A stretch of DNA of 43,697 nt from a virus, in IMG/VR virus record IMGVR_UViG_3300012961_000002, positions 1 through 43,697 of that record; one strand, written 5' to 3'. Both the position numbers and the translations under genes were made by a program. The notes below the pieces were generated by a model. That model saw only the letters and a list, made by a program, of their open reading frames with translations, was not told the origin of the DNA and did not search any database. Shown in pieces: positions 7,928-42,436 of this stretch (the first letter of the stretch is position 1; each line of letters opens with the position of its first letter).

Positions 7928-8272
7928 ATGCCTGATTGGATTGGCGCTCTCGGTCAACTCGGACCTATCGGTATCGCGCTTATCATTCTGCTTATCATGT
8001 GGGTTCTTAATCGTCAGACCACTCGCGGCTATCGCGAGGAGATCGCACGAATCAACAAGATCCATGACGATGAGATGGAAGAGTTGCGCGTTAACCGGGC
8101 CCGTGAACTCAGGGAACTACGGGACGAGATTTCGGGTCTCAAGGAAGAGATTCGTAATCTGCGGGAAGAGATGAACGCTGAGCGTATCGCTCGTCGTGCC
8201 GCCGAAGAGGCGGCGCACCGTTTGGCAATGGAGAAGTTGGTACGGGGAGGTTCAGGTGCGGAAGAGGGCTAA
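7928..8272 (+). CDS. membrane protein with N-terminal TM helix and charged coiled coil (holin-like candidate)
   Basis: TM segment IGALGQLGPIGIALIILLIMWVL followed by an E/R-rich heptad-like region. Lies upstream of the endolysin. Confidence 0.4.
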   Translation: MPDWIGALGQLGPIGIALIILLIMWVLNRQTTRGYREEIARINKIHDDEMEELRVNRARELRELRDEISGLKEEIRNLREEMNAERIARRAAEEAAHRLAMEKLVRGGSGAEEG

Positions 8273-8879
8273 TCCAGATCTGGATCCCCAGTTGGTCAGG
8301 ACCAGTTCCTTGCTGGCTCGAATTACGTTCGGGATTCTGATCGTGGTTGTTCTGTACATCGGTATTGGTACTTGGTACAACCTTCGAGCCAAGGAGTCCG
8401 CCCAGCAGCAGGCCGGGCAGGGCCAGGACCTCGCTGCGGCACTTCAGGCCGAATGTGCCAAGGGTCTCGAATTCTACGACAAGCACCGAGAACTGTGCGC
8501 CAAGGCAGCCAACCTGGACTCCCAGCCTCAGCAGCCTGGTACCGGTCCCCGAGGTGACCAGGGTCTGCGCGGAGAGAAGGGCGATCCCGGGGCCTCAGGT
8601 AGCCCAGGACAGCCCGGACTTAAGGGCGACACAGGAGATACCGGAGCCCCGGGTTTGAACGGCCTGGACGGCTCTCAGGGCTCTCAGGGCTCTAAGGGCG
8701 AGCAGGGGGACACAGGTCCCGCAGGTGGGCCCGGGCAGCAAGGCCCCAAGGGTGAAGATGCGCCCCGGATCACGGACGTTCACCTGGACATGGCCTCGTG
8801 CACAGGGACCATCACCCTATCGGACGGCTCGACTTTCCCGATCTCTATGACCGGGTGCGGGCCCGGAGGAGGAATCTAA
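8259..8879 (+). CDS. membrane-anchored collagen-like (Gly-X-Y) repeat protein
   Basis: GTG 8259 lies 5 nt after GGGGAGG. Has an N-terminal TM helix (ITFGILIVVVLYIGIG) and 24 uninterrupted G-X-Y triplets. Confidence 0.6.
   Translation, partial: RKRANPDLDPQLVRTSSLLARITFGILIVVVLYIGIGTWYNLRAKESAQQQAGQGQDLAAALQAECAKGLEFYDKHRELCAKAANLDSQPQQPGTGPRGDQGLRGEKGDPGASGSPGQPGLKGDTGDTGAPGLNGLDGSQGSQGSKGEQGDTGPAGGPGQQGPKGEDAPRITDVHLDMASCTGTITLSDGSTFPISMTGCGPGGGI
8547..8762 (+). repeat. collagen-like G-X-Y triplet repeat (24 triplets) within CDS 8259..8879
   Basis: Translation reads GPR GDQ GLR GEK GDP GAS GSP GQP GLK GDT GDT GAP GLN GLD GSQ GSQ GSK GEQ GDT GPA GGP GQQ GPK GED. Confidence 0.9.
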
Positions 8880-9611
8880 ATGCCGTACCTCACCAACCTG
8901 GCCGATGTGGCTAGGGGCGCGGGTCTGATCGTGGTTGAACAGGCCGGGTGGAAGACCCGGGGCCACGGCGCTATGACCGATGTACAGACCGTGACGTGCC
9001 ACCACACCGCAGGGCCCGCGACCGGTGATGCGCCTTCGCTTCAGGTGGTCCAGAACGGGCGCTCAGACCTGGCCGGTCCTCTGGCTCATTTCGTGCTCTC
9101 ACGCTCGGGCGTGGTGTACGTGGTGGCCGCGGGACAGTGCTGGCACACCGGCGCCACCCTTCAGCCTTGGCAGTCGAACGCGCACTCGATCGGTATCGAG
9201 GCCGAAGCTACAGGCAAGGATCCGTGGCCCGAGGTTCAGCTTGACGCTTATGCGCGCCTGTGCGCAGCGTTGTGCCGCGCGTTCGGGCTCTCGGTGTCCC
9301 GAGTCCTGGGCCACAAGGAAGTGTGCGCCCCGGTCGGGCGCAAGCCCGATCCCAACTTCGATATGAACGAATTCCGTGGTCGAGTGGCCACGGTTCTTAA
9401 CCCCCCGGCAGATTGGCTGAAGATGGCAACCCAGGCAGAGGTAAAGGCAGCGTTCGTCGAGGCACTGGAGGAGTTCTTCTGGTACAGGTACCCGGACGGC
9501 CGTAACCTGGTCGACGACACGAAGCAGCAGACCGGGTCGCTTCTGGGTCTTCAGGCCCAGCTCGATGAACTGATCGCAGCAGTCAAGGCCTCCAAGAACA
9601 CCGACGTCTGA
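8880..9611 (+). CDS. endolysin, N-acetylmuramoyl-L-alanine amidase (PGRP/amidase_2-like)
   Basis: Motifs TCHHTAG ... AHSIGIE ... GHKEVCAPVGRKPDPNF are typical of zinc amidase_2 domains. Last gene of the rightward unit. Confidence 0.75.
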   Translation: MPYLTNLADVARGAGLIVVEQAGWKTRGHGAMTDVQTVTCHHTAGPATGDAPSLQVVQNGRSDLAGPLAHFVLSRSGVVYVVAAGQCWHTGATLQPWQSNAHSIGIEAEATGKDPWPEVQLDAYARLCAALCRAFGLSVSRVLGHKEVCAPVGRKPDPNFDMNEFRGRVATVLNPPADWLKMATQAEVKAAFVEALEEFFWYRYPDGRNLVDDTKQQTGSLLGLQAQLDELIAAVKASKNTDV

Positions 9612-9620: not shown

Positions 9621-9662
9621 AAGCCCCCGGGCCTTTCCCTTTTGGGATTGGTCCGGGGGCTT
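9621..9662. terminator. bidirectional hairpin terminator at the convergence of the two transcription units
   Basis: aagcccccgg (9621-9630) pairs with ccgggggctt (9653-9662). T-rich on the plus side and A-rich upstream. Confidence 0.7.
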
Positions 9663-9770
9663 TCTCCTATTACAGGGCCCAGGTGCCGTCTGCGCGGGCC
9701 CGAGCTATGCTCCGTTCGATTGCGGAACGAATCTCCAGGAACACAGGGTCGGGCTTGCGCACCGGCTTCC

Positions 9771-10271
9771 TCAGAAAGGGCTCTTCGAGTCCTCGACCGT
9801 CTTGGCGTAGAACTGGGTCACAGCAGCAGCGATGACCTTGGCGAGTTCGTACCGCTCGGCCATCGGCAAATCCTTGACGTACTCGCTCTGGATGTACCCA
9901 CCGGTACGAACCTTCAGGACGACCTTACGGTTTGCGTCGAGGACGTTCGAACCATCCGAGGTCCACGGGGTGGGGAACTTGGGCTCCTGGACCGGCTCGG
10001 GCTTCGGGCCAACCAGGTTCTTGACGTACGACATTTCTTCGATTCCTTCCAGATTGTCGGTAAAGAATCCGTAAGGGCCGAGGGGGCTACTCACGGTGTC
10101 GAGCTTGACATAGGTCATGCGGGTGTTGTATCGGCTATTGGCCCATCCGGACTTCCCTGCCGGGGCCCGGACCACGGTACCCTCTCGCCCTACATAGTAC
10201 GCGGTACTGGTATTTCGCACACGGACCCGGGTCCCCGGAGCTACCCAGTCATTAGACTTGTATCTTGCCAT
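9771..10271 (-). CDS. hypothetical protein (166 aa)
   Basis: ORF track entry. ATG is confirmed at 10269-10271. Last gene of the leftward unit. Confidence 0.6.
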   Translation of the reverse strand: MARYKSNDWVAPGTRVRVRNTSTAYYVGREGTVVRAPAGKSGWANSRYNTRMTYVKLDTVSSPLGPYGFFTDNLEGIEEMSYVKNLVGPKPEPVQEPKFPTPWTSDGSNVLDANRKVVLKVRTGGYIQSEYVKDLPMAERYELAKVIAAAVTQFYAKTVEDSKSPF

Positions 10272-10314
10272 ATCTTCCTTCCTGGGTGGGAGGCCCCCGA
10301 AGGGGCCGTCCCGG

Positions 10315-10491
10315 CTACTTCCAGCTATCGAACTTGTTGACGTGGTTCTTGTTCCACTTGTTCTGAACCTCGTCCCGGGTCTTCCCGGTCCCGATCCAGC
10401 CCCCGCACGAACACTTCCCCGTCATGGAACCGTCCCTGCCAGGCTTCCCGATCTTCAACTTGTGGCCCTTGAAGCTGGGCATTTGCGCCAT
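10315..10491 (-). CDS. small basic protein (58 aa; below the ORF-track cutoff)
   Basis: Hand translation MAQMPSFKGHKLKIGKPGRDGSMTGKCSCGGWIGTGKTRDEVQNKWNKNHVNKFDSWK. AGGAGA lies 5 nt upstream of the ATG, and third-codon-position GC (GC3) is high. Confidence 0.5.
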   Translation of the reverse strand: MAQMPSFKGHKLKIGKPGRDGSMTGKCSCGGWIGTGKTRDEVQNKWNKNHVNKFDSWK

Positions 10492-16791: not shown

Positions 16792-17044
16792 CGTGGTTCT
16801 CCTCTTCCGGTTCGAGGTTCTCAATCACCATCTTGTACTGCTCACCGGTCCCTGCCTGGACCAGTAAGAGCACGGACTTGGCCGTCGTGGGCGTGGCCAC
16901 ATCCGTGACCGTGAACACGTCCGTGTCGGCATCGCCGGTCACCAAGTTCAGGCCTGTGATGATGAGTCGCCCTGCTTCCTGGACCGGCGCCAGCGTCTCG
17001 TTGAACTGCCTCTCCAGATCTTCGTTCGAGATGAACTCAGACAT
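16781..17044 (-). CDS. hypothetical acidic protein (87 aa)
   Basis: ORF track entry. The ATG follows GGGAAGGAAGG. Confidence 0.6.
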   Translation of the reverse strand: MSEFISNEDLERQFNETLAPVQEAGRLIITGLNLVTGDADTDVFTVTDVATPTTAKSVLLLVQAGTGEQYKMVIENLEPEEENHDGE

Positions 17045-17561
17045 GGACCTTCCTTCCCTGGTTGATGTTGTTCATGCAGTCGGTCAGCGCTCGAACCGCG
17101 GCCTCGATCACGTCTCGGTCAACCGGTGCCGTGTTCCCGTACACGAACTCCGCGTAGATCAGCCTGGAATACACCGGCAGAACCCGAGCCAGATAGCGGC
17201 ACCCCTCGTCGAGATCGGGCAAGTTACCGGTGATCTTGGTCCGGCTATTGATCAGAGCCCCGGACTTGAGGAGGTATCGAACCTCGCCTACAGAGTATAG
17301 GCTGTTTCCGGTGGCGAATTCGAAGTCGGCCACCTCAGAGGCCACGAGAGCCCGAGCCTGATCAACGAGGTACTTTTTGCGCCGGTACTCGGGCATCGTG
17401 TCCAGGGCCGTGAACCGTTCATCGTCGAACAGCTTGAGCGCCAGATCTCGGGCAAGGTCATCGGCCTCTGCTACTGAGGGCCAGTCAGCATGTACCCGTT
17501 CCGCTGCTTCGCGGATCTCGGGGCCATACTTGGTGAACAACCGGACCTCCTCTGTCATCAT
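17037..17561 (-). CDS. hypothetical protein (174 aa)
   Basis: ATG 17561 overlaps the upstream stop as ATGA. Confidence 0.55.
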   Translation of the reverse strand: MMTEEVRLFTKYGPEIREAAERVHADWPSVAEADDLARDLALKLFDDERFTALDTMPEYRRKKYLVDQARALVASEVADFEFATGNSLYSVGEVRYLLKSGALINSRTKITGNLPDLDEGCRYLARVLPVYSRLIYAEFVYGNTAPVDRDVIEAAVRALTDCMNNINQGRKVHV

Positions 17562-17767
17562 TCTTCCAGCCGTTCCCACTCGGGGTAGCAGACCTCTACG
17601 TAGCCTCCGGGCCCCCGGGACCGCTTCGCGGCTCCCACCGTGGAGTACGGGCCCGCGTACCGGGTCTCCCAATGGAGCTTACCTTCTCGGTCCGTCCAAC
17701 GATACTCGGTTACGGCCCGGTACATCGGGTCATCGCCCTTAACATAGGCTCGGGTTGCGCTGCTCAT
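17558..17767 (-). CDS. hypothetical protein (69 aa)
   Basis: ORF track entry, translationally coupled to its neighbours. Confidence 0.55.
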   Translation of the reverse strand: MSSATRAYVKGDDPMYRAVTEYRWTDREGKLHWETRYAGPYSTVGAAKRSRGPGGYVEVCYPEWERLEE

Positions 17768-27959: not shown

Positions 27960-28174
27960 TCGATGTCCTTTCCATGGAGATCAGCACGCTGAGCCTCCCG
28001 AACGATGTGGTCCAGGAGGATCAGGAATGGAGCAGGCCACCCAGCCTGACCAGCGATATTCCTGAATTCCATGATCGAGTCAACGGAGATCCAGAGCCGG
28101 TACTTATTCTCGTCACGTATGGTTCGCACAGGCCAGGCAACCGGCCTGAGCGGTTCGGGCGCGGGCAGGGTCAT
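27956..28174 (-). CDS. hypothetical protein (72 aa)
   Basis: ATG 28174 follows GAGAGGA. Confidence 0.5.
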   Translation of the reverse strand: MTLPAPEPLRPVAWPVRTIRDENKYRLWISVDSIMEFRNIAGQAGWPAPFLILLDHIVREAQRADLHGKDIE

Positions 28175-28218
28175 CGGAAGTCCTCTCTCGTGTCTTACTT
28201 CCAGTCTAACACAGGTCG

Positions 28219-28740
28219 TCAAGCCGCAGTCCATCCGTTTTCGGGGGCGTAGAGGACCGGGTACCCGTACGTCTTGGAGCACATTTCCTGGTAGGTCAGA
28301 GGCCCGAACATCGGAGCCCCATGGATGACCTCATCAGCCCATCGCCACCGGTCCAGAATGTACGCCCGGCTCTTGAAGACTTGGGCCTCGTAGGTCCACA
28401 CCCCCATGAACTTGGACCACGGGTATTCTTCCCGCATCCGTTCGATCACTCTGCGTACGGTTCGGCCTGAGTACACGAAGTCATCGGCGATGATGTACTC
28501 CAGGCCCACGGAGCCTTCGATCCGATAACAAGAGTGTGTCGATTGGTCATCGGGCTTGCGCACGATGGCGAACTTAGAACCTACGGTCGGGGCCACCCGA
28601 GAAACGTACACGGTTCCCGAAAGCCCGGTCCCGACGATGGTGTCAAAACTCACATCGGCAGTCCCAGCCCGGAACTCGGAGAGTAGTTTCCGATTGCTGT
28701 ACGTGAGGGCCTTGCTAAAGTAGCTATCACCCGCGCTCAT
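28219..28740 (-). CDS. type I phosphoribosyltransferase-fold protein
   Basis: PRPP-binding signature EYIIADDFVYSGRTV, plus upstream FDTIVGTGLSGTV...FAIVRK. First gene of the leftward unit. Confidence 0.65.
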   Translation of the reverse strand: MSAGDSYFSKALTYSNRKLLSEFRAGTADVSFDTIVGTGLSGTVYVSRVAPTVGSKFAIVRKPDDQSTHSCYRIEGSVGLEYIIADDFVYSGRTVRRVIERMREEYPWSKFMGVWTYEAQVFKSRAYILDRWRWADEVIHGAPMFGPLTYQEMCSKTYGYPVLYAPENGWTAA

Positions 28741-28775
28741 CCCTTGATCCTCTCTGCGTAGGCGGTGTGAGGGCC

Positions 28776-28804
28776 ACTCTGCCAGGGCTCGAAGGCAGTG
28801 TCAA
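28776..28804 (-). promoter_or_regulatory. leftward early promoter candidate TTGACA-N17-CAGAGT
   Basis: The -35 element is at 28799-28804 and the -10 at 28776-28781 (minus strand), 35 nt upstream of the SD and ATG of 28219..28740. Confidence 0.4.
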
Positions 28805-28834
28805 GCCGTATCCCCCAAACGGGTGATGGCCAGA

Positions 28835-28877
28835 TACGCGACCTGGGAAAAGGGGCGATTACCCTCTATAAGTAGGG
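28835..28877. repeat. 43-bp direct repeat, copy 1 (DR1a)
   Basis: tacgCgacctgggaaaaggggcgattaccctctataagtaggg matches 29045-29087 with 1 mismatch. Confidence 0.9.
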
Positions 28878-28904
28878 GTAGGGGTTAAGGGATAGGGGAT
28901 AGGG
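28873..28904. repeat. G-tract iteron-like cluster (tagggg tagggg ttaaggg atagggg ataggg)
   Basis: Five TA(G)3-4 units spaced 6-8 nt apart, read directly from the sequence. Confidence 0.6.
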
Positions 28905-28906
28905 CA

Positions 28907-28921
28907 TAAGAACCTTAAACC
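28907..28921. repeat. 15-bp direct repeat, copy 1 (taagaaccttAaacc)
   Basis: Matches 28966-28980 with 1 mismatch. The two copies flank the palindromes. Confidence 0.8.
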
Positions 28922-28927
28922 TAAGAT

Positions 28928-28955
28928 CTAGAGAACCCCTTAAGGGGTTCTCTAG
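28928..28955. repeat. 28-bp perfect palindrome ctagagaaccccttaaggggttctctag
   Basis: Self-complementary over all 28 nt. Followed immediately by a 10-bp palindrome gttctagaac (28956-28965). Confidence 0.9.
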
Positions 28956-28965
28956 GTTCTAGAAC

Positions 28966-28980
28966 TAAGAACCTTGAACC
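28966..28980. repeat. 15-bp direct repeat, copy 2 (taagaaccttGaacc)
   Basis: See copy 1 at 28907-28921. Confidence 0.8.
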
Positions 28981-29044
28981 CTGGTTCCTGGATCTTATCC
29001 CCTGTACCTGAAGTTAGGGCCCCGTAACGTACAGTAGCTAAAAG

Positions 29045-29087
29045 TACGTGACCTGGGAAAAGGGGCGATTACCCTCTATAAGTAGGG
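29045..29087. repeat. 43-bp direct repeat, copy 2 (DR1b)
   Basis: See copy 1 at 28835-28877. The copies are spaced 210 bp apart. Confidence 0.9.
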
Positions 29088-29210
29088 ACAAGTTACACGA
29101 GTCCAGCGCACGTACACGTATAAGCGTGGACCTGAACATGATCCTTACACCAGATCCTCGGGTTGAGCCGTTGAGGTTCTGTTCCTCCTCTCCGGAGCCT
29201 CCGGCTCCCC

Positions 29211-29260
29211 GAGGGTCTTCAAACTTGGAAGAGGTCTGGCGAGTCGACACCAGAAACCGG
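29211..29260 (+). pseudogene. decayed tRNA copy (D-arm and anticodon-arm similarity to the Leu-CAG gene)
   Basis: The remnant ...caaacttggaagagg-tctgg-cgagtcgaca-ccagaa aligns with caactggcagaggcg-tctgg-ctcagac-ccagaa in the Leu gene. No T arm follows. Confidence 0.35.
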
Positions 29261-29349
29261 CCGTTGGGGTGATGACCTTTGACATCAAGGGGAGACATTG
29301 AGACCAGTCTCATGCCGCTGGTTTAGATCTTTCTGATGGTGTGACACAT

Positions 29350-29421
29350 TGGCCAGTAGCTCAACGGTAGAGCAAGGGACTGTTAATCCCTTAGATGTAG
29401 GTTCGAATCCTGCCCGGTCAG
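29350..29421 (+). tRNA. tRNA-Asn (GTT)
   Basis: Acceptor tggccag/ccggtca (one A:C), D stem gctc/gagc, anticodon stem aggga/tccct with loop ctGTTaa, T arm gtagg-ttcgaat-cctgc. Confidence 0.75.
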
Positions 29422-29494
29422 CTTGTTGATCCGACCTTGATCAAGTCGGGGAGACCCAGTCTAGGCGTCCTGGGATATCAAAGATTGCCAGTAA

Positions 29495-29566
29495 CGAAGA
29501 TTAACTCAGTTGGAAGAGTGCCGGTGTGAAGTACCGGATGCACAGGTTCGAATCCTGTATCTTCGG
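29495..29566 (+). tRNA. tRNA-Phe (GAA)
   Basis: Acceptor cgaagat/atcttcg, D stem actc/gagt, anticodon stem ccggt/accgg with loop gtGAAgt (G32, G37), T arm acagg-ttcgaat-cctgt. Confidence 0.75.
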
Positions 29567-29568
29567 CG

Positions 29569-29600
29569 TAGGTGAGAGATTCGGGTTCGAATCCCGGGCC
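29569..29600 (+). pseudogene. tRNA 3' fragment (variable region, T arm and a truncated acceptor)
   Basis: gtgagagat-tcggg-ttcgaat-cccgg-gcc. There is no room for a 5' half after tRNA-Phe. Confidence 0.4.
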
Positions 29601-29606
29601 ACTAGG

Positions 29607-29739
29607 TACCAGTGGGACTAGCTTAAGGGGTAAAGCGCTCACCGTTTAGCATGGATTGTGCCGCCCGGGAGGCTGGGCACCGGCTTCGAAACCCGGGATG
29701 GTAGGCATTGACCTAGGGGTTCGACTCCTCCACTCTCCG
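29607..29739 (+). pseudogene. degenerate tRNA-like segment (a good D arm, a long GC hairpin, two T-arm-like motifs, no complete cloverleaf)
   Basis: D arm ta-gctt-aaggggta-aagc. Hairpin tgccgcc...ggc-ggca. T-like motifs ccggc-ttcgaaa-cccgg and agggg-ttcgact-cctcc. I could not find matching acceptor or anticodon stems. Confidence 0.3.
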
Positions 29740-29836
29740 CAGGGTCCATCGCCACAGTTGATCCTCCCGTAGAGGCATCTGAGGTAGCTCCTGAGTCATC
29801 CAACGTGGTGCTCTGGCGGTGTTGACCCTTTACCTT

Positions 29837-29919
29837 GGATTGGTGTAGCTGGGATCTACGGCGCCGCTGCTAACGGCGTAGCCCTTAGGGGCTCGAAGGT
29901 TCGATTCCTTCCCTTTCCG
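29837..29919 (+). tRNA. tRNA-Ser (GCT), long variable arm
   Basis: Acceptor ggattgg/cctttcc (tandem U:U at 4:69 and 5:68), anticodon stem cgccg/cggcg with loop ctGCTaa, variable arm agccc-ttag-gggct, T arm gaagg-ttcgatt-ccttc. Confidence 0.6.
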
Positions 29920-29921
29920 CT

Positions 29922-29988
29922 GGAACTAGGCGGGTCTTAGGGCCCTGGATAGCCGACACTGACTCCGGTAAGAGCAGGGTCTAGTTCC
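29922..29988 (+). pseudogene. 67-nt tRNA-like element with a perfect 7-bp terminal helix but no canonical T loop
   Basis: ggaacta (29922-29928) pairs with tagttcc (29982-29988). The interior does not fold into D, anticodon and T arms. Confidence 0.3.
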
Positions 29989-29992
29989 TTAA

Positions 29993-30064
29993 CGCTCAGT
30001 GACCGAGAGACTAGGTGCCTGGTTGCAACCCAGGTTTACGCCGGTTTGAATCCGGCCTGAGTGT
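29993..30064 (+). tRNA. tRNA-Cys (GCA)
   Basis: Acceptor cgctcag/ctgagtg, anticodon stem cctgg/ccagg with loop ttGCAac, T arm gccgg-tttgaat-ccggc. Confidence 0.7.
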
Positions 30065-30068
30065 CCAA

Positions 30069-30137
30069 CCCGAGGCATCTGGGATGCGGCGCGGCTGTAA
30101 ACCGCTACCGAGTCAGGTTCGATTCCTGGTCGCGGGA
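30069..30137 (+). tRNA. tRNA-Tyr (GTA), atypical 69-nt form
   Basis: Acceptor cccgagg/tcgcggg (one mismatch). The D region is only 14 nt (catc-tgg-gatg hairpin). Anticodon stem cgcgg/ccgct with loop ctGTAaa, T arm tcagg-ttcgatt-cctgg. No long variable arm. Confidence 0.5.
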
Positions 30138-30208
30138 CTAGGCCCTGACGAGGGTCCCTAGGGCTAACGTGGCGCCTAGGCGGGATGAGCCCGACATAGC
30201 TCTCTTAT

Positions 30209-30282
30209 GCCCCTCTAGCCCAACTGGCAGAGGCGTCTGGCTCAGACCCAGAAGGTTCGGAGTTCGAATCTCCGGAGGGGTA
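30209..30282 (+). tRNA. tRNA-Leu (CAG), class-I-like (short variable region)
   Basis: Acceptor gcccctc/gaggggt, D stem gcc/ggc, anticodon stem tctgg/ccaga with loop ctCAGac, 5-nt variable region, T arm cggag-ttcgaat-ctccg, discriminator A. Confidence 0.6.
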
Positions 30283-30381
30283 CTTAACGTAGGATTGACG
30301 GCGACCAGATCCAGCCTCAGTGTCCGAATGGTCCGGATACTGCCTACGTGCGGATTGACCCACCGCTTAATCAGGGTCTCT

Positions 30382-30452
30382 GCCTTCCTCGTCTAATGGA
30401 AAGACTCGGGCGTCGTATCCCCGAAATGTCGGTTCGATTCCGTCGGTTGGCT
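30382..30452 (+). tRNA. tRNA-Thr (CGT)
   Basis: Acceptor gccttcc/ggttggc (tandem U:U), D stem gtct/agac, anticodon stem cgggc/ccccg (C:C at 31:39) with loop gtCGTat, T arm gtcgg-ttcgatt-ccgtc (one U:U). Confidence 0.5.
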
Positions 30453-30524
30453 CTAGGACCCGGTAAGCCCTGACTAAGAGCTGAGTTTGGGTCCAAGCGT
30501 CTAGCCCACGCTGAACGGGCCTCT

Positions 30525-30595
30525 GGTCCATTGGTGTAGCGGTAACACATGTGCCCCTCAAGCATATGTCCTCGGTTCGAATCCGGGATGGATCA
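30525..30595 (+). tRNA. tRNA-Glu (CTC) with C33
   Basis: Acceptor ggtccat/atggatc, D stem gtgt/acac, anticodon stem tgtgc/gcata with loop ccCTCaa (position 33 is C at 30556), T arm ctcgg-ttcgaat-ccggg. Confidence 0.65.
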
Positions 30596-30616
30596 CTTAA
30601 CCTGAGAGGAAGACCC

Positions 30617-31321
30617 GTGCGAGCCCTTCGACTCTTCCTAGCGCTGGTGCTTGGCCTCACGATGGTCATTCCCGGGGCTGAGATGGCCTCTGCGGGCACG
30701 GGAGGGTGGTGCCAGGGTCTCTACACCGGAGCACCGGTCCTGGACCTTCTGGGCGACTCTCAGACGGCAAGTGGCTCGGTCTCTGCCGAAGATCAGCGCT
30801 GGCCCTCAGTGCTGGGAGCTTCACTTCAGTCGGATGGCGCCCCGGGAACTCAGGTCTGGGTCGGTGGCGCCATCGCAGGATCGGCTACCGCCGACTACCT
30901 GCCCGGAGCGAAGTACTCGGATCATATCGAGTTCACGTCTCATCAGCCCAACCTGATCACCCTGGGATGGGGAACCAATGACTGGGCAGGCGGAGTCCCC
31001 GTCGAGACGTTCAGGGCGCAATACCAGACGATCATCGATCGAATCCGGGCTCTTAGCTCTGGCTCCACGGTCGTCATCATTCACATGCCTTGGGTGTACA
31101 ACGAGGAACTCACGAGTACCCGTGCTCCCCAGGCCGACTACCTGAACGTTGAAAAGGATCTCGCCCGTGATAACGGGCTCAAGTTCTTCGGATCGGAATT
31201 CTACTTCCCGGGAAATGATCCGTACAGTTTCAAGTCTCCCCCGGACCAGGTGCACATGACAGCGCTTGGACAGTGGGTGTTCTACTCAGCTTTCCGGAGC
31301 TTCTTGCTCGGGATGTGCTGA
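30617..31321 (+). CDS. secreted SGNH/GDSL-family hydrolase (esterase)
   Basis: GTG 30617 lies 4 nt after GAGAGGAAG. Signal-peptide-like RALRLFLALVLGLTMVIPGAEMASA. SGNH blocks LLGDSQT (I), GWGTNDW (III) and DQVH (V). The upstream part of ORF 30551.. lies inside tRNA-Glu and was discarded. Confidence 0.7.
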   Translation: MRALRLFLALVLGLTMVIPGAEMASAGTGGWCQGLYTGAPVLDLLGDSQTASGSVSAEDQRWPSVLGASLQSDGAPGTQVWVGGAIAGSATADYLPGAKYSDHIEFTSHQPNLITLGWGTNDWAGGVPVETFRAQYQTIIDRIRALSSGSTVVIIHMPWVYNEELTSTRAPQADYLNVEKDLARDNGLKFFGSEFYFPGNDPYSFKSPPDQVHMTALGQWVFYSAFRSFLLGMC

Positions 31322-31325
31322 TCGT

Positions 31326-31394
31326 TAGGGAACGCATGATGCGAGCCTGGTCTCCAAAACCGGGTGCCAGTGAGTTTGACTCTCACTTCCCTTG
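31326..31394 (+). tRNA. tRNA-Trp (CCA), atypical 69-nt form
   Basis: Acceptor tagggaa/ttccctt (U:U at 1:72). 14-nt D region (cgca-tga-tgcg hairpin). Anticodon stem ctggt/accgg with loop ctCCAaa, T arm gtgag-tttgact-ctcac. Confidence 0.5.
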
Positions 31395-31398
31395 CCAA

Positions 31399-31470
31399 TG
31401 GCGCTTAGTTCAGTGGAAGAACAACCGGCCTACACCCGGTATGTCGAGGGTTCGAATCCTTCAGTGCCAA
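31399..31470 (+). tRNA. tRNA-Val (TAC) with C33
   Basis: Acceptor tggcgct/agtgcca, D stem gttc/gaac, anticodon stem accgg/ccggt with loop ccTACac (position 33 is C at 31430), T arm gaggg-ttcgaat-ccttc. Confidence 0.7.
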
Positions 31471-31518
31471 CTTGGTCCCGTTGCAATGCGCCCCTAAGGG
31501 CGGTAACCAGGGACCTTT

Positions 31519-31592
31519 ACCCGATTAGCTCAGAGGAAAGAGCCCTTGGCTACGAACCAAGGCGGTCGCAGGTTCGAATCCTGTATCGGGTT
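31519..31592 (+). tRNA. tRNA-Arg (ACG)
   Basis: Acceptor acccgat/atcgggt, D stem gctc/gagc, anticodon stem cttgg/ccaag with loop ctACGaa, T arm gcagg-ttcgaat-cctgt. Confidence 0.8.
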
Positions 31593-31596
31593 CCAT

Positions 31597-31669
31597 ACCT
31601 TCGTAGTTCAGCGGACAGAACACCGGTTTCCTAAACCGGGTGCCGTAGGTTCGAATCCTACCGAGGGTG
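31597..31669 (+). tRNA. tRNA-Arg (CCT)
   Basis: Acceptor accttcg/cgagggt, D stem gttc/gaac, anticodon stem ccggt/accgg with loop ttCCTaa, T arm gtagg-ttcgaat-cctac. Confidence 0.8.
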
Positions 31670-31726
31670 CGTAGAGAACATAGTTGCCGGTAAAATCCAG
31701 AGCATGAACCGGACGTAGAAGTACAT

Positions 31727-31799
31727 GGGTCTATAGTTTCAACGGTAAAACCCCGGACTCTTAATCCGTGAGATCTAGGTTCGAATCCTAGTAGGCCTA
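31727..31799 (+). tRNA. tRNA-Lys (CTT)
   Basis: Acceptor gggtcta/taggcct, D stem gttt/aaac, anticodon stem ccgga/tccgt with loop ctCTTaa, T arm ctagg-ttcgaat-cctag. Confidence 0.75.
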
Positions 31800-31800
31800 C

Positions 31801-31873
31801 TGCGGGGTAGTGTAATCGGTAACATGACAGTCTCATAAGCTGTGCGATGCGGGTTCGAGTCCCGTCCCCGACA
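31801..31873 (+). tRNA. tRNA-Met (CAT) (or Ile2 if lysidine-modified)
   Basis: Acceptor tgcgggg/ccccgac (1:72 and 2:71 unpaired), D stem gtgt/acat, anticodon stem acagt/gctgt with loop ctCATaa, T arm gcggg-ttcgagt-cccgt. Confidence 0.6.
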
Positions 31874-31915
31874 CCTTTCCCCTGCACCGAGGGAGACGAA
31901 ACTATCGGGCACTAT

Positions 31916-31987
31916 ATGGTACGAGGAAGATGGTAATCCGCTCCGTTCGGGCCGGAGAGATACTGGGTTCGACTCCCAGGTGCCAGA
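31916..31987 (+). tRNA. tRNA-Pro (CGG)
   Basis: Acceptor atggtac/gtgccag (A:G at 1:72), D stem gga/tcc, anticodon stem ctccg/cggag with loop ttCGGgc, T arm ctggg-ttcgact-cccag. Confidence 0.6.
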
Positions 31988-32018
31988 CTAGGTCCCCCGT
32001 GATAAGCGGGGGCCGCAA

Positions 32019-32089
32019 TACCGGTTCGTCTAATGGCAAGATACCAGGCTCTGAACCTGGGGACTGAGGTTCGACCCCTTGACCGGTAG
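32019..32089 (+). tRNA. tRNA-Gln (CTG)
   Basis: Acceptor taccggt/accggta, D stem gtct/agat, anticodon stem ccagg/cctgg with loop ctCTGaa, T arm tgagg-ttcgacc-ccttg. Confidence 0.75.
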
Positions 32090-32091
32090 CT

Positions 32092-32162
32092 CTGTGATTA
32101 GTTCAATGGAAGAATATCCGCCTGTGACGCGGAAGACGTGGGATCGATACCCACATTACAGT
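32092..32162 (+). tRNA. tRNA-His (GTG), no encoded G-1
   Basis: Acceptor ctgtgat/attacag, D stem gttc/gaat, anticodon stem tccgc/gcgga with loop ctGTGac, T arm gtggg-atcgata-cccac (A at position 54). The nt at -1 is T. Confidence 0.65.
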
Positions 32163-32166
32163 CCAT

Positions 32167-32239
32167 GCTGTTCGCGTGTCCGGTTGACCGAAGTTCTCTG
32201 ATAAGGAACTTGTGCTAGGTTCAACTCCTAGGAGCAGTA
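32167..32239 (+). tRNA. tRNA-Ile (GAT)
   Basis: Acceptor gctgttc/gagcagt (two G:U), anticodon stem gttct/ggaac with loop ctGATaa, T arm ctagg-ttcaact-cctag. Confidence 0.65.
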
Positions 32240-32325
32240 CTGTCCCGAGTGATCCTCGGGCGAGTGGGCGCGAAATAGTCCCCCAGTTGGCTAGATCTGG
32301 GTTATCAAATGATTCTAGCTTCAAT

Positions 32326-32397
32326 GGTCCGTTAGCTCAACGGTAGAGCACCATTCTGTCAAGATGGACGGCGCGGGTTCGAATCCCGTACGGATCG
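32326..32397 (+). tRNA. tRNA-Asp (GTC)
   Basis: Acceptor ggtccgt/acggatc, D stem gctc/gagc, anticodon stem ccatt/gatgg with loop ctGTCaa, T arm gcggg-ttcgaat-cccgt. Confidence 0.8.
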
Positions 32398-32436
32398 CAA
32401 GCCTGGCCTAGGGGTAACTCCCTGGTTGGGCGCTTT

Positions 32437-32508
32437 GGGGTTGTAGCTCAAATGGTAGAGCACCGGCGTTGCATACCGGGTGAACGGGTTCGATTCCCGT
32501 CTTCTCCA
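32437..32508 (+). tRNA. tRNA-Ala (TGC)
   Basis: Acceptor ggggttg/cttctcc (G3:U70 present; tandem U:U at 5:68 and 6:67), D stem gctc/gagc, anticodon stem ccggc/accgg (C:A at 31:39) with loop gtTGCat, T arm acggg-ttcgatt-cccgt. Confidence 0.6.
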
Positions 32509-32546
32509 CAGGGGCTCACTGCTGCGCGCAAGCATAGTCCCACAAT

Positions 32547-32620
32547 GGGGTATTGATGTTTAACGGATAGCATGTCAGTCTTCCAAACTGAATGTGTGGG
32601 TTCGAATCCCGCATACCTCA
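32547..32620 (+). tRNA. tRNA-Gly (TCC)
   Basis: Acceptor ggggtat/atacctc, D stem atgt/gcat, anticodon stem tcagt/actga with loop ctTCCaa, T arm gtggg-ttcgaat-cccgc. Confidence 0.75.
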
Positions 32621-32629
32621 CTTCTAGTT

Positions 32630-32661
32630 CCCGCCCGTGCTCCGGTACTGGGCGGGCTTTT
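32630..32661 (+). terminator. intrinsic terminator closing the tRNA array
   Basis: cccgccc (32630-32636) pairs with gggcggg (32650-32656), followed by ctttta. Confidence 0.65.
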
Positions 32662-32676
32662 ACTTATGGAGGCCGC

Positions 32677-32808
32677 ATGTGCTGGTACGATGACCTCTGC
32701 TCATGCACTGATGGTGCGGACGAACTGATTCGCACTTCGGATGTCGAGGACTTCGAACTAGGCACAGCGTGTGATCTGAATGACACAGATTGTGAATCTT
32801 GTCAGTAG
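32677..32808 (+). CDS. very acidic Cys-rich miniprotein (43 aa)
   Basis: ATG lies 4 nt after GGAGG. Sequence MCWYDDLCSCTDGADELIRTSDVEDFELGTACDLNDTDCESCQ. GC3 is only about 50 percent, so coding status is uncertain. Confidence 0.4.
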   Translation: MCWYDDLCSCTDGADELIRTSDVEDFELGTACDLNDTDCESCQ

Positions 32809-32810
32809 GC

Positions 32811-32839
32811 TTGACACAGGGGCCTGGGGGTGGTACCCT
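32811..32839 (+). promoter_or_regulatory. rightward promoter candidate TTGACA-N17-TACCCT
   Basis: The -35 element is at 32811-32816 and the -10 at 32834-32839. TTGACA is followed by CAGGGG, the same element seen in the leftward promoters. Confidence 0.4.
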
Positions 32840-32941
32840 CCCCGGGTCTGTTCGCGCAGCCCGTGGTGTTCTCCCGACACGCTCGCTCCCAGAGCTTTAT
32901 GCCTGTGTGTCATCCCCGACTACGCTCTGTGAGAGGCAGCC

Positions 32942-33121
32942 ATGAACGAGGCTGAGGCCCTGGCCAAGCGGTTCCATGAGGCGTACGAACGCCTTGCCCC
33001 TGACTTCGGATACAAGACCCGCGAGGCTTCGGCCGTGCCGTGGTCCGAGGTACCGGAGCAGAACAAGCGGCTCATGATCGCCGTTGCTCGGGAGATTCTG
33101 AACGAGGGGCTTGCGGCTTGA
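32942..33121 (+). CDS. hypothetical protein (59 aa; below the ORF-track cutoff)
   Basis: ATG lies 6 nt after GAGAGG. Sequence MNEAEALAKRFHEAYERLAPDFGYKTREASAVPWSEVPEQNKRLMIAVAREILNEGLAA, with high GC3. Confidence 0.55.
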   Translation: MNEAEALAKRFHEAYERLAPDFGYKTREASAVPWSEVPEQNKRLMIAVAREILNEGLAA

Positions 33122-33134
33122 GCCGCACTATGTT

Positions 33135-33329
33135 ATGGTATTCGCCATGACGAACCTGTACCGCTTCCTCCTCATCTTCGCTTCCCTGATCGCCGGTGTC
33201 TTGAACGGGTCTCCGCTCGCGGCTCCGGTCCTGATCTTCATGGTCTACCTTCTGGCCGTGCTGGTCCGTCAGGCCCAGTTCGCTCAGGAGATCTACACCG
33301 CGCGCCGAATCAAGGAGCTGGCCCGATGA
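33135..33329 (+). CDS. small membrane protein (start 33135 or 33147)
   Basis: Two hydrophobic helices (FLLIFASLIAGVL, VLIFMVYLLAVLV). Confidence 0.5.
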   Translation: MVFAMTNLYRFLLIFASLIAGVLNGSPLAAPVLIFMVYLLAVLVRQAQFAQEIYTARRIKELAR

Positions 33330-33484
33330 GCATGGCGCATCGTCAGAAGACTTGCGCCGCGTGCGGGGCGCCCATCCTTGAATCGGACCGCGTATCCGTC
33401 GAGCCGCTGATCGATGGCCAGGTCCGGTACGTGGTTGTACACTGGAACCACCACACGTTCTCATGTCGAAAGGTGGCTCGGTGA
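33326..33484 (+). CDS. small protein with CxxC (52 aa; below the ORF-track cutoff)
   Basis: ATGA overlap at the start and AAGGAG 8 nt upstream. Sequence MSMAHRQKTCAACGAPILESDRVSVEPLIDGQVRYVVVHWNHHTFSCRKVAR. Confidence 0.5.
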   Translation: MSMAHRQKTCAACGAPILESDRVSVEPLIDGQVRYVVVHWNHHTFSCRKVAR

Positions 33485-33648
33485 TGTCGTTCCGATGGCA
33501 CGTCAATCTCCCGGGCCCTGTGGCTTACTCCAAGCCGATCAAGCGCCGAGGCAAGAGGCCCGGGCTGCTGACCTCGGTTCTGGTTTGGTTCATCGTCAAG
33601 CCGTTCGAGTTTATGTTTCGAGGCTTGGCCAAGTTGGCGCGCTCTTGA
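33484..33648 (+). CDS. small basic/hydrophobic protein (54 aa)
   Basis: ATG 33484 overlaps the upstream TGA. Contains LLTSVLVWFIVKPF. Confidence 0.45.
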   Translation: MSFRWHVNLPGPVAYSKPIKRRGKRPGLLTSVLVWFIVKPFEFMFRGLAKLARS

Positions 33649-33673
33649 CGAGCGGCTACGCGAGGAGGGCCCG

Positions 33674-33952
33674 ATGACCGACACCCCCGAGATGGAAGAC
33701 CGGTTCATGGGAGAGATCCTGACCGACTTCTACAAGCGTGTGACCGAGTTCGATGCCGTGGAGGAATTCGCCCTCGTTGTGATGGGCGATCAGGACGGCA
33801 CGTTCCGAGCTTCGGTAGTGGCCGGTGACACAATCCTGGCCAAGGGGTCCGGGTCCTCGTGGTTCGAAGCTGTGAGCCGCGCTACCGCGCGCGGCCTTGT
33901 CGCTATCGAGAAGCTCAAGGAACGCATCGAAGCGGCCCAGGAGTTTGAGTGA
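33674..33952 (+). CDS. hypothetical acidic protein (92 aa)
   Basis: ORF track entry. The ATG follows GAGGAGGG. Confidence 0.6.
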   Translation: MTDTPEMEDRFMGEILTDFYKRVTEFDAVEEFALVVMGDQDGTFRASVVAGDTILAKGSGSSWFEAVSRATARGLVAIEKLKERIEAAQEFE

Positions 33953-33961
33953 GGTGAGATC

Positions 33962-34195
33962 ATGGCCGTTGGAACCGGGGGGTCAACCCTACCGTTCGGG
34001 CCAGGGTCCGCGCTCTGGAAGTACTGGACCGCAGGTGCAGGCCTGGCCAAGTGGTCAGGGTCCGTGCACAAGTGGACCACGCTTCACAGGTTGCTGATCG
34101 AGGCCGGGGTTCCGGCACATATGGCCGACGGTCTCACCACGAACATCATTCAGGCTGTCATACCTGGATACCTTAAGACCAATCACAAGAAGTAA
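33962..34195 (+). CDS. hypothetical protein (77 aa)
   Basis: ORF track entry. The ATG follows GAGGTGAG. Confidence 0.55.
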   Translation: MAVGTGGSTLPFGPGSALWKYWTAGAGLAKWSGSVHKWTTLHRLLIEAGVPAHMADGLTTNIIQAVIPGYLKTNHKK

Positions 34196-34472: not shown

Positions 34473-35126
34473 GTGGATGTCTCCGTTTTGATCCCATGGC
34501 GCGGCGGAGACCCTCAGCGCGAACGCGTGTTCGAGTACGTCTTGATGATGTGGGAGAAGACCGGCGCCGATATCTGCGTCGGCGAAGACGACCCTGGTGG
34601 CCCGTTCAACTGCTCTCGTGCCCAGAACCGAGCCTTTCGGCTCGCCAAGCATGATCGACTGATGATGATCGGTGCCGACACGGTCCCCGATTTCGAACTC
34701 GTCCAAGTTGTATACAATCGACTGGATACCGTCGACTGGTTCCCGCTGTTCCACGAGACTGCGTACTACTCTCAGGAGTCAACGGCCCGGATCCTCTCCG
34801 GAGCGCCCCGAGCCGCTGAGCCCTTTGAGTACGTCCTGCCGTTCTGCACAGGGCCCGTTGCCTTGACCCGTGACGCGTACGTCGCCACGGGGGGCATGGA
34901 TGAGCGGTTCTCCGGTTGGGGCTACGAAGATGCTGCGTTCCGACAGACGCTAGCTGGCCTGTTCGGTGCCCCGCCTGCCGAGCCAAAGACCGCGCGCTGC
35001 CTCTGGCATGAGGTGGGTCATCGTATTGCCGTGTCACCCAACGAAGTGCTCATGAGGGACTATACGCCGCTGACGGAGCCCGTGTCAACCCGTGCCTATC
35101 TGGATCAGAGGGGGTCGTTCCTGTGA
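34473..35126 (+). CDS. glycosyltransferase (GT2 / galactosyltransferase-like)
   Basis: Starts VSVLIPWRG. C-terminal motif GGMDERFSGWGYEDAAF is typical of GT-A enzymes with a Glyco_transf_7C-like end. Confidence 0.65.
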   Translation: MDVSVLIPWRGGDPQRERVFEYVLMMWEKTGADICVGEDDPGGPFNCSRAQNRAFRLAKHDRLMMIGADTVPDFELVQVVYNRLDTVDWFPLFHETAYYSQESTARILSGAPRAAEPFEYVLPFCTGPVALTRDAYVATGGMDERFSGWGYEDAAFRQTLAGLFGAPPAEPKTARCLWHEVGHRIAVSPNEVLMRDYTPLTEPVSTRAYLDQRGSFL

Positions 35127-41320: not shown

Positions 41321-42436
41321 ATGCGGATTCGTGCCCGAGGGGGATCACCTGTGATGACGGCGCCTACAGAGGTGGCCTTGCGGATGATCGCCTTGGGTGC
41401 GACTCCGGATTCGCTCCGCAGCAAGCACGTTAAGCCACGCCAGGACCTCGGTCGACCGGCCCGGGTCCTGGCGGTGGTTCATGGGTGGATGCCGTATCTT
41501 GCCGCTGGTTCTGAGCGCATGGTCCAACACATGTTGGACGCGCTCCCGCGCGAAGAGTTCGAGGTCCACATCCTTTCCCTGGGGTACGGAAACGACCCGG
41601 GGATCAATAACTTTTACATGTACGAGGGTACTCCGGTTACCGTGGGATACGAACCGCCGTTCGTTCCAGACATTATTGTCACGCACCACGGCCCGGGTTC
41701 CCGTGTAGTTCAGGCGCTTTGCCAGGACTTCCCGGACGCCCGTGTAGTGGCCGTGTACCACAACGAGCGGTACGATATCGAAGACATCAAGTCTTTGAAC
41801 GCTGAACTGGAAGTCTTTAATACCTGGTGGGTCGGTGGCTCGGTTCGCCGTGCCGGTGCCGCGGGTTTGAGCGGCCTGGAACAGGGCATCATCGTCGTTC
41901 ATCCGCCCCTGGAGCCGGACCGCCACCGAGTCGAAGAGACTGGGTCCGCGGTTACACTAGTCAATCTGCAAGAGAACAAGGGTGTGCGCGTGTTCCAGGA
42001 GCTTGCGCGCAGGATGCCCGATGTTCGATTCCTGGGCGTGGAAGGCACGCACGGGACCCAGGAACGGCCGAAGATCCCGAACGTCGAGTACATGCCCGTG
42101 ACGCAGGACATGCGCGACGTGTGGCGAAAGTCCAGGGTTGTTCTCATGCCGTCGGGGTACGAGTCTTATGGAATGGTTGCCGCCGAGGCACAGGTGAACG
42201 GTATTCCGGTCATCGCCAACCCCACCGCGGGCCTAGCCGAATGCCTGGGCAACGCTGGTATTTTCATTCCGCGGTCGAACATTGACGACTATGAGCGAGC
42301 TTTGAGGCTTCTCCTCGAAGATCGTAAGCACTATCAGGAGCGGTCCGAGATGGCCCGTCTTCGAGGGCAGGAACTTCAGTCTCAGACAGAGCGGGAACTG
42401 GCCCGATTCATTGATGAAATGAGGAGGCTGTCATGA
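41321..42436 (+). CDS. glycosyltransferase (GT-B, GT1/GT4-like) inside the head module
   Basis: C-terminal motif SGYESYGMVAAEAQVNGIPVIA (E-x7-E type). The ATG follows AAGGAG. The start is somewhat uncertain. Confidence 0.65.
   Translation: MRIRARGGSPVMTAPTEVALRMIALGATPDSLRSKHVKPRQDLGRPARVLAVVHGWMPYLAAGSERMVQHMLDALPREEFEVHILSLGYGNDPGINNFYMYEGTPVTVGYEPPFVPDIIVTHHGPGSRVVQALCQDFPDARVVAVYHNERYDIEDIKSLNAELEVFNTWWVGGSVRRAGAAGLSGLEQGIIVVHPPLEPDRHRVEETGSAVTLVNLQENKGVRVFQELARRMPDVRFLGVEGTHGTQERPKIPNVEYMPVTQDMRDVWRKSRVVLMPSGYESYGMVAAEAQVNGIPVIANPTAGLAECLGNAGIFIPRSNIDDYERALRLLLEDRKHYQERSEMARLRGQELQSQTERELARFIDEMRRLS

Follow-up and report, generated by a model that had tools for sequence, protein, structure and literature searches.

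A predicted exported SGNH-family esterase gene tightly flanked by tRNA genes in the tRNA array of an actinobacteriophage-like genome

We analysed the viral DNA of IMG/VR record IMGVR_UViG_3300012961_000002 over its full length of 43,697 nucleotides (nt; hereafter the window) and focused on a predicted esterase gene of the SGNH family that lies inside a tRNA array on the + strand (29.35–32.62 kb). ARAGORN called 20 tRNAs on that strand, confirmed by Rfam, and most of them, including the tRNA-Glu next to the esterase gene, lack an encoded CCA. A first-pass annotation of this DNA had described the esterase gene as the sole protein gene of the array, starting at GTG 30617 and stopping 4 nt before position 31326. 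Our analysis, in which the gene is read on the + strand to the stop codon TGA at 31319–31321 (234 amino acids, aa), gave the same picture, as the remaining + strand open reading frames (ORFs) of the array overlap tRNAs. The features of the array and the gene are as follows:

29350..30453, + strand: seven canonical tRNA genes (Asn, Phe, Ser, Ser, Cys, Leu, Thr) and a hidden tRNA-Tyr(GUA) (ARAGORN, Rfam)
about 30069–30138, + strand: the hidden, non-canonical tRNA-Tyr(GUA), in the 141-nt gap between tRNA-Cys and tRNA-Leu
30525..30596 (end 30595/6), + strand: tRNA-Glu(CUC), without encoded CCA (ARAGORN; Rfam 56.8 bits)
30597..30616, + strand: 20-nt leader with the Shine–Dalgarno (SD) sequence GAGAGGAAG at 30604–30612, its GAGG core 7 nt before the GTG
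30617..30694, + strand: predicted signal peptide, residues 1–26, MRALRLFLALVLGLTMVIPGAEMASA (from sequence layout; conserved in homologues)
30695..31321, + strand: predicted mature SGNH esterase domain including the stop codon, with catalytic S48, G88, N121, D210 and H213 and conserved C32 and C234 (last residue)
31326..31397, + strand: Trp-like tRNA(CCA) of 72 nt with G73 and encoded CCA (from fold and covariation)
31399..32621, + strand: twelve more tRNA genes, from Val to Gly, several of them 0–1 nt apart (ARAGORN, Rfam)

The gene fills the room between its neighbours almost completely. From the end of tRNA-Glu to the start codon there are 20–21 nt, and from the stop codon to the Trp-like element at 31326 there are 4 nt, so that, as the first-pass annotation had pointed out, spacers of 20 nt and 4 nt leave no space for a promoter or terminator of its own. 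The mechanically defined ORF reaches further upstream to GTG 30551, a codon within tRNA-Glu; the homologues begin at the codon equivalent to 30617 (MRALRLFL...). Five other metagenomic phage contigs carried the esterase gene in the same syntenic tRNA array, in one of two orders. The order tRNA-Glu, gene, Trp-like tRNA, tRNA-Val (type A) was found in the window and in loci L001, L012 and L013, and the order tRNA-Glu, tRNA-Trp, gene, tRNA-Val (type B) in L003 and L014. All four type-A loci have kept the GAGAGG motif of the leader and the 4-nt gap between the stop codon and the Trp-like tRNA. The distance from the 3' end of the upstream tRNA to the start is 20–23 nt in all six loci, taking the type-B start as the in-frame GTG two codons upstream. 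The coding region is abutted directly by tRNA or tRNA-like genes on both sides, the arrangement expected of tRNA punctuation; this is kept in the relatives, and the embedded position has been retained despite near-saturated synonymous divergence. Pairwise comparison of the six orthologues gave dN/dS values of 0.13–0.33 at dS 0.4–1.7, and the GC and GC3 of the gene agree with those of the phage genome. Purifying selection and phage-matched composition therefore indicate a real, selected and long-resident gene and no chance ORF. A predicted pairing of the SD sequence with codons 8–10 was no better than in shuffled sequence (z = 0.61) and was dropped.

The SGNH identity proposed for the product was confirmed by profile searches, with Pfam Lipase_GDSL_2 (PF13472) matching at E 5.3e-19 and 69.8 bits (cut-off 32.9 bits) and Lipase_GDSL (PF00657) at E 7e-9 and 36.5 bits (cut-off 23.6). 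Blocks I, II, III and V of the family, that is, GDS with the nucleophilic serine, a glycine, GxND and DxxH, are present as G46-D47-S48, G88, residues 119–122 (G119/N121/D122) and residues 210–213 (D210/H213), and are invariant in 14 homologues. Foldseek assigned the AlphaFold2 (AF2) model of the protein (pLDDT 76, pTM 0.75) to the SGNH fold with probability 1.00; the best matches were TesA/TAP and acetyl-xylan esterases at E about 1e-7, and the list also held Axe2, CE2, acetyl-mannan and sialate esterases. The best structural match, Escherichia coli TesA/TAP, aligned with a TM score of about 0.6–0.8 at 17% identity. The TesA equivalog model (NCBIfam NF007819) scored 30.4 bits, far below its cut-off of 270 bits, and no other NCBIfam model matched; a sequence search of the PDB returned weak generic SGNH matches and nothing more specific. 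The viral structural neighbours in BFVD were mostly longer than 370 aa, and the named ones were mainly tail spike, tail fibre, minor tail and esterase or hydrolase proteins. Judged by sequence and model, the ORF at 30617–31321 is probably a functional phage gene for a small SGNH-family serine esterase.

The N-terminal segment, described in the first-pass annotation as signal-peptide-like, has the layout of a Sec signal, for which we looked for a positive n-region, an h-region of at least 10 hydrophobic residues and small residues at −3 and −1. R2 and R5 lie in the n-region, the hydrophobic core FLALVLGLTMVI spans 13 residues with a Kyte–Doolittle (KD) value of 2.79, P19-G20 follows, and A24-S25-A26 precedes G27; cleavage is probably after A26. 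The AF2 model has a helix at residues 2–16 and is then disordered at 19–28. The same n/h/c layout recurs in all free-standing homologues, though the sequence itself varies. Every signal-peptide form has exactly two cysteines, one at about position 32 and one at the last or nearly last residue (C32 and C234 here), and the prophage homologue that has no signal peptide contains one only, the first of the pair being missing. C32 and C234 probably form a disulfide outside the cytoplasm. The confinement of the pair to signal-peptide forms fits an extracytoplasmic location and is indirect support for export, which we infer to proceed via Sec.

The esterase family is small, with 14 close homologues. 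Five cluster representatives were found at E<=1e-30 among 1.84 billion, and the only species genome to contain the clade, among 185,579, was that of Amycolatopsis plumensis. A tblastn search of phage records with the esterase returned only the esterase/tail spike of Arthrobacter phage Abidatro, at 24% identity. By these searches the SGNH clade is essentially phage-restricted. The A. plumensis homologue lies in a prophage (L015), is 58% identical, has no signal peptide and sits among tail genes, between tape-measure/minor-tail genes and a collagen-like fibre plus lysin. As a tail-module protein without a signal peptide it has the features expected of a virion-associated SGNH enzyme, which the window esterase does not. 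We considered the L015 prophage as a relative of the window phage, with a relocation of the gene from tail to array, and rejected this since only the esterase and parts of the tape measure match and the backbones are not closely related. In A. plumensis NZ_JBHSJY010000001, two identical-scoring esterase copies (L016 and L017) lie about 40 kb apart, at about 5.45 and 5.49 Mb, which suggests duplicated or tandem prophages. Another homologue, in L002, is a signal-peptide form directly 3' of a tail-fibre-like ORF, and L005, with a different backbone of 59 kb, has a 50%-identical esterase and a few small ORFs between two tRNA clusters. The L005 region at 5610–8469 also encodes RlaP, a T4 Rnl1-type RNA ligase and a PNKP-like kinase/phosphatase, and looks like a tRNA-repair set.

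The tRNA-Trp that had been placed at 31326 stood up as a cloverleaf with a CCA anticodon and covariation, but default tRNA finders do not call it. Default ARAGORN reported no tRNA between the esterase stop codon and tRNA-Val, and Rfam gave the element 26.5 bits to tRNA-Sec, against a gathering score of 47 bits, any RF00005 match being lower (clan overlaps were suppressed). ARAGORN called the window element in mitochondrial (-mt) mode only, and its relaxed mode (-ps) called tRNA-Trp(cca) in the L001 and L013 orthologues. The element has the anticodon loop CUCCAAA, an atypical D arm made up of a 4-bp stem and a 3-nt loop, no 8–9 linker and a 7-bp anticodon stem. Comparison with the orthologues in L001, L012 and L013 revealed five pairs changed on both sides, and over three distinct sequences pairing was retained in 92.8% of cells, compared with 35–46% when the partners were slid. 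These comparisons support a cloverleaf maintained by compensatory changes.

The hidden tRNA-Tyr is built similarly, without an 8–9 linker and with a 4-bp D stem, a 3-nt loop (UGG) and an extended anticodon stem; its acceptor stem holds a conserved A.G mismatch. It is kept in six of six arrays, missed by default ARAGORN and Rfam and called in the relaxed or mitochondrial modes. With the Trp-like and Tyr elements the array covers all 20 amino acids (about 22 tRNA genes), which argues that both are functional non-canonical tRNAs and not debris. That the "missing" Tyr and Trp tRNAs of the array turn up as conserved non-canonical cloverleaves is the most unexpected by-product of the analysis.

In the type-B loci the tRNA-Trp is canonical and its sequence is unrelated to the Trp-like element of type A. 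As the two Trp tRNAs are unrelated and lie on opposite sides of the gene, Trp has been supplied twice, independently. The type-B 3' spacer is 21–22 nt long and lies directly before tRNA-Val, and contains a 4-bp hairpin with a UUCG loop, GCCC-UUCG-GGGC. The positions are:

L003, 5899–5972: canonical tRNA-Trp; 6706–6727: 3' spacer
L014, 1301–1374: canonical tRNA-Trp; 2106–2126: 3' spacer

The L012 array has one further insert, a 115-aa HNH-motif ORF (CxxC...DH...CxxCH; 2075–2422, + strand) between tRNA-Pro and tRNA-Gln, two genes that a 30-nt spacer separates in the window.

Spacers of 0–1 nt between several of the tRNAs point to a polycistronic array. A promoter and terminator scan of positions 28000–34000 saw no sigma-70-like site on the + strand. 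The candidate signals around the array, and a phage protein that may bear on them, are:

28835..28877, + strand: copy 1 of a 43-nt direct repeat, containing TATAAGT; candidate promoter or regulatory site
29045..29087, + strand: copy 2 of the repeat, 98% identical to copy 1; partly conserved in L001 and L014
29153..29217, + strand: long conserved leader hairpin before the first tRNA; 22 pairs, 5 with compensatory changes, in 4 loci
32630..32665, + strand: terminator-like hairpin CCCGCCC...GGGCGGG followed by CTTTTACTT, directly after the last tRNA
17040–17672, − strand: sigma-factor-like protein (phrog_354, E 6e-21)

The 43-nt repeat occurs twice in the window, both times upstream of the array (the chance expectation is 0 for a 24-mer), and may be a tandem promoter or regulator site. 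The sigma-like protein could explain the lack of sigma-70-type promoters before the array and before the late genes. The block of the leader hairpin is not coding, because its indels are not multiples of 3, and it matched no Rfam family. At the other end, a GC hairpin with a T-run follows tRNA-Gly in six of six related loci, with the same shape and a different sequence in L013, and the + strand scan site at 32638–32654 overlaps the hairpin that we read as the array terminator. Of the other terminator-like sites in the scan, most fell within tRNA genes, five of these on the opposite strand, and were disregarded. The first-pass proposal that the esterase is expressed together with the tRNAs and not with the lysis genes fits the tight spacers, the lack of a + strand sigma-70 site and the terminator-like hairpin after the array; the gene very probably belongs to the tRNA transcription unit. 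Between the two 43-nt repeats, the divergent intergenic region contains a perfect 28-nt palindrome, CTAGAGAACCCCTTAAGGGGTTCTCTAG (28928–28955), which could be an operator or a bidirectional terminator.

We propose that the esterase cistron would have neither promoter nor terminator of its own, would be transcribed on a polycistronic tRNA precursor and would rely on its own SD site for translation. Such precursors are matured by RNase P together with a 3' endonuclease, and CCA is added; this is established tRNA biology, and the array precursor would be processed in the same way. At the gene, 3' maturation of the CCA-less tRNA-Glu by host enzymes would cut 20 nt before the start and create the 5' end of the message, and RNase P, acting at the 5' end of the Trp-like tRNA, would cut 4 nt after the stop codon. 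Esterase output would thus be coupled to tRNA transcription and bounded by tRNA processing. From the layout of the locus we strongly infer the co-transcription and infer the cleavage sites. That RNase P/Z cuts would release a functional mRNA is plausible, but translation directly from the uncut precursor is no less likely than translation of a released mRNA. The comparison with organellar transcripts drawn in the first-pass annotation holds in that the gene is butted by tRNAs on both sides, but it is a loose one, since the gene keeps an SD leader and a complete stop codon. As a whole, the explanation that this is an exported SGNH esterase, encoded by an integral cistron of one tRNA operon and bounded by tRNA processing, appears likely to us.

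Several observations weigh against this explanation. The Trp-like element of the window is the most degenerate of its family, with a U1.U72 mismatch and the T loop UUUGACU, and may therefore be a poor RNase P substrate. No array promoter was identified, the TATAAGT of the 43-nt repeat not being kept in L001, and with a sigma-like protein among the phage's own products, promoters of a non-standard kind could have escaped the sigma-70 scan. The homologues in L004, L008 and L002 lie in ordinary ORF contexts with no tRNAs nearby, so embedding among tRNAs is not needed for the function of the gene. Neither sequence nor fold yields a substrate specificity, the best matches being generic. Finally, if the E. 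coli secG-leuU transcript is a guide, a message whose 3' end lies 4 nt beyond the stop codon can be expected to be unstable: the secG mRNA has a half-life below 30 s once RNase P separates it, and in an rnpA mutant, where the co-transcript stays uncut, it is stabilised to 17 min (PMC2241853).

This last point leads to the reading in which processing switches the gene off. The esterase would then be translated from the nascent or unprocessed precursor only, RNase Z/P cuts would leave an RNA with a 5' monophosphate and an unprotected 3' end that decays fast, and embedding would serve to throttle or time the output of an exported and possibly harmful enzyme, so that its level stays low. We regard this as a live possibility that falls short of an even chance. 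The decay of secG after separation by RNase P (PMC2241853) speaks for it, as do the 4 nt left 3' of the stop codon in all four type-A loci and the UUCG-loop hairpin in the type-B spacer of 21–22 nt, which suggests that protection of the 3' end matters. On the other hand, the final ~35 nt of the coding sequence are predicted to form a hairpin that might protect the 3' end, and the conservation of the tight spacing suits both models equally. That conservation speaks against the view that the array position is a historical accident, with a mobile cargo gene residing in a variable, permissive region upstream of the terminase where tRNA genes and homing endonucleases pile up: a 20–23-nt leader and a minimal 3' spacer were kept in six loci across dS>1, and drift should vary them more. 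Homologues of 50–55% identity (L004, L008) are indeed found away from tRNAs, upstream of the terminase or among other ORFs, the gene of L005 accompanies small ORFs between two tRNA clusters on a different backbone, an HNH-motif ORF has been inserted between tRNA-Pro and tRNA-Gln in L012, the two lineages have Trp on different sides of the gene, and coding sequences of many kinds occur within mycobacteriophage arrays (PMC5966550); on balance we hold an accidental position to be doubtful, if by no means far-fetched. Much the least probable is that the gene has a hidden promoter of its own, within the upstream tRNA sequence or read by the phage sigma-like factor, and is expressed independently of the tRNAs. 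The phage does encode such a factor, and a sigma-70 consensus scan captures actinobacterial promoters poorly; yet only 20 nt, mostly SD, separate tRNA-Glu from the start, such a promoter would overlap conserved tRNA sequence in all six loci, and the repeated candidate motif is present only upstream of the whole array.

Regarding the biological role, our best guess, and a tentative one, is receptor modification, in which an acyl or acetyl group would be removed from an adsorption-relevant polymer in the cell envelope of the infected host. The tail-module homologue of L015, the tail-fibre neighbour in L002 and the viral structural neighbours point to an adsorption-relevant envelope polymer, and a secreted form would, as a hypothesis, act on the infected cell's own surface. 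Of the roles listed in the first-pass annotation, envelope or receptor modification thus gains indirect support from the L015 homologue and the viral structural neighbours, whereas a LysB-like function is unlikely, as the SGNH fold with GDS goes with no cutinase match or GxSxG, the gene is ~21 kb from the endolysin and there is no sign of a mycolic-acid host. More broadly, the enzyme might be a lysis accessory, a LysB-like lipid esterase or a peptidoglycan O-acetyl esterase placed in the wall via Sec to aid the amidase endolysin. It is predicted to be an exported hydrolase made during infection, its Foldseek matches include acetyl-xylan, acetyl-mannan and sialate esterases, and SGNH enzymes include peptidoglycan and polysaccharide O-acetyl esterases. 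We nevertheless consider a lysis role improbable: the gene lies about 21 kb from the endolysin in another transcription unit, the LysB cutinase fold is absent, O-acetylation of MurNAc is not known to block amidases, the closest terminase relatives belong to phages of Streptomyces, Arthrobacter and Curtobacterium, none of them mycolata, and the nearest non-metagenomic homologue is in a tail module and not in a lysis cassette. A bolder version of the receptor idea, to which we give little credence, joins all these elements in one selected module. Here the mRNA of a secreted receptor-destroying esterase would be cut from, or limited in time by, the tRNA operon through host RNase Z/P; the enzyme would be the soluble, Sec-exported counterpart of the tail enzyme of related phages; the infected cell would strip its own receptor modification, giving superinfection exclusion or preventing the trapping of progeny; and the Trp-like and Tyr elements would be functional, the former serving also as a processing signal.

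The cargo gene that the first-pass annotation singled out is a real feature, but less novel than was implied, since coding sequences inside mycobacteriophage tRNA arrays have been described (Morgado & Vicente 2018, PMC5966550). The cargoes there are mainly HNH or homing endonucleases, peptidyl-tRNA hydrolase, a beta-lactamase-domain protein and hypothetical proteins (PMC5966550). Like those, the esterase gene lies between tRNAs of a dense array, on the same strand and without obvious signals of its own, and the HNH-motif ORF of the L012 array is of this classical kind. Phage T4 offers another example, with segB inside its tRNA cluster. Unlike those, the cargo here is a predicted Sec-exported SGNH esterase, unusually tightly flanked (20 nt and 4 nt) and conserved in position in six loci.

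The likeness to bacterial co-transcripts of mRNA and tRNA is in the shared transcript: in secG-leuU (PMC2241853) the RNase P cut at the tRNA 5' end sets the 3' end of the mRNA, and the same would hold here. The tRNA of secG-leuU stands on one side of the mRNA only, while tRNAs flank the esterase gene on both sides. The tufB operon, another bacterial mRNA-tRNA co-transcript, differs in the same way. Two-sided flanking is a feature of the mitochondrial tRNA punctuation model, reportedly that of Ojala, Montoya and Attardi from 1981, in which a gene is butted by tRNAs on both sides; as there, RNase P/Z sites would coincide with the mRNA ends. The phage arrangement differs in its 20-nt SD leader, its complete stop codon and its single gene in an otherwise pure tRNA operon, and bacterial-type translation can begin on the uncut precursor.

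As for the enzyme, SGNH esterase domains are found in phage tail spikes, fibres and minor tail proteins (PMC5380687) and in receptor-binding enzymes of Klebsiella prophages (PMC13123978). The window esterase shares their fold and catalytic blocks and has its 58%-identical homologue in a prophage tail module; those proteins, however, are multidomain, 400–1100 aa long and without a signal peptide, whereas this one is a single domain of 234 aa with a predicted signal peptide, encoded outside the tail module. The NanS-p sialate O-acetylesterases of Stx phages (PMC10462455) are likewise phage esterases with SGNH blocks, and their genes too are cargo that lies apart from the tail and lysis modules. 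They differ in being a large multidomain family (DUF1737 + SASA) found in a Gram-negative temperate phage, with tRNAs not directly flanking the gene, and we detected no sequence relationship between NanS-p and the window esterase. In phage 933W, tRNA genes share the late region in which the NanS-p gene resides. TesA/TAP, the periplasmic thioesterase I or lysophospholipase L1, is of similarly small size and likewise consists of a single SGNH domain preceded by a signal peptide; it is 17% identical, and the terminal cysteine pair is specific to the phage clade.

Genes in phage tRNA arrays, mRNA-tRNA co-transcripts and phage SGNH esterases are thus all known, and the locus adds no new principle and leaves the concepts unchanged. 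What is new is this cargo, a small SGNH enzyme of a rare phage clade, predicted to be exported, with its tight and conserved two-sided tRNA flanking and the non-canonical Trp and Tyr tRNAs. If the proposed mode of expression is true, the locus would be a clean phage case of protein synthesis set by tRNA-operon transcription and the kinetics of tRNA processing, in a compact conserved module, and would shed light on the transcription and maturation of phage tRNA arrays in actinobacteria. The alternation of a rare, phage-restricted SGNH clade between tail-module and secreted forms gives a handle on the envelope substrate or receptor of actinobacterial hosts.

With its 43.7 kb and 60% GC, the window has the appearance of a siphovirus-type actinobacteriophage genome that is complete or nearly so. 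Besides the array, its main regions are:

35.7 kb to the end, then 1–9.6 kb, + strand: late genes (terminase, portal, protease, capsid, tape measure, minor tail proteins, collagen-like fibre, Amidase_2 endolysin)
8880–9608: Amidase_2 endolysin
10.5–28.7 kb, − strand: replication genes (DNA polymerase, primase, DnaB, exonuclease) and the sigma-like protein

A megablast search of 50,697 phage records with the array gave a 55-nt stretch of tRNA-Gly as the sole match; the phage therefore has no close cultured relative. The best matches of the terminase, all below 40% identity, were to Streptomyces, Arthrobacter and Curtobacterium phages. No integrase matched among the window ORFs of suitable size that were scanned, so the phage looks lytic, and PADLOC gave no defence-system match. 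The ORF at 9642–10337 was considered as a LysB or other lysis partner 3' of the endolysin and set aside, having no family match and an implausible translation. Just 3' of the array, a 72-aa ORF (33111–33326, + strand) without a family match contains two strongly hydrophobic segments and is holin-like or membrane-protein-like. Virion glycosylation has been reported for some actinophages, and the window has two glycosyltransferase-like ORFs, one between the array and the terminase (34473–35123, + strand; Glyco_transf_7C, E 6e-7) and one directly 3' of the major capsid gene (41321–42433, + strand; phrog_26352, and phrog_2170 glycosyltransferase at E 9e-11), which may serve to glycosylate the virion.

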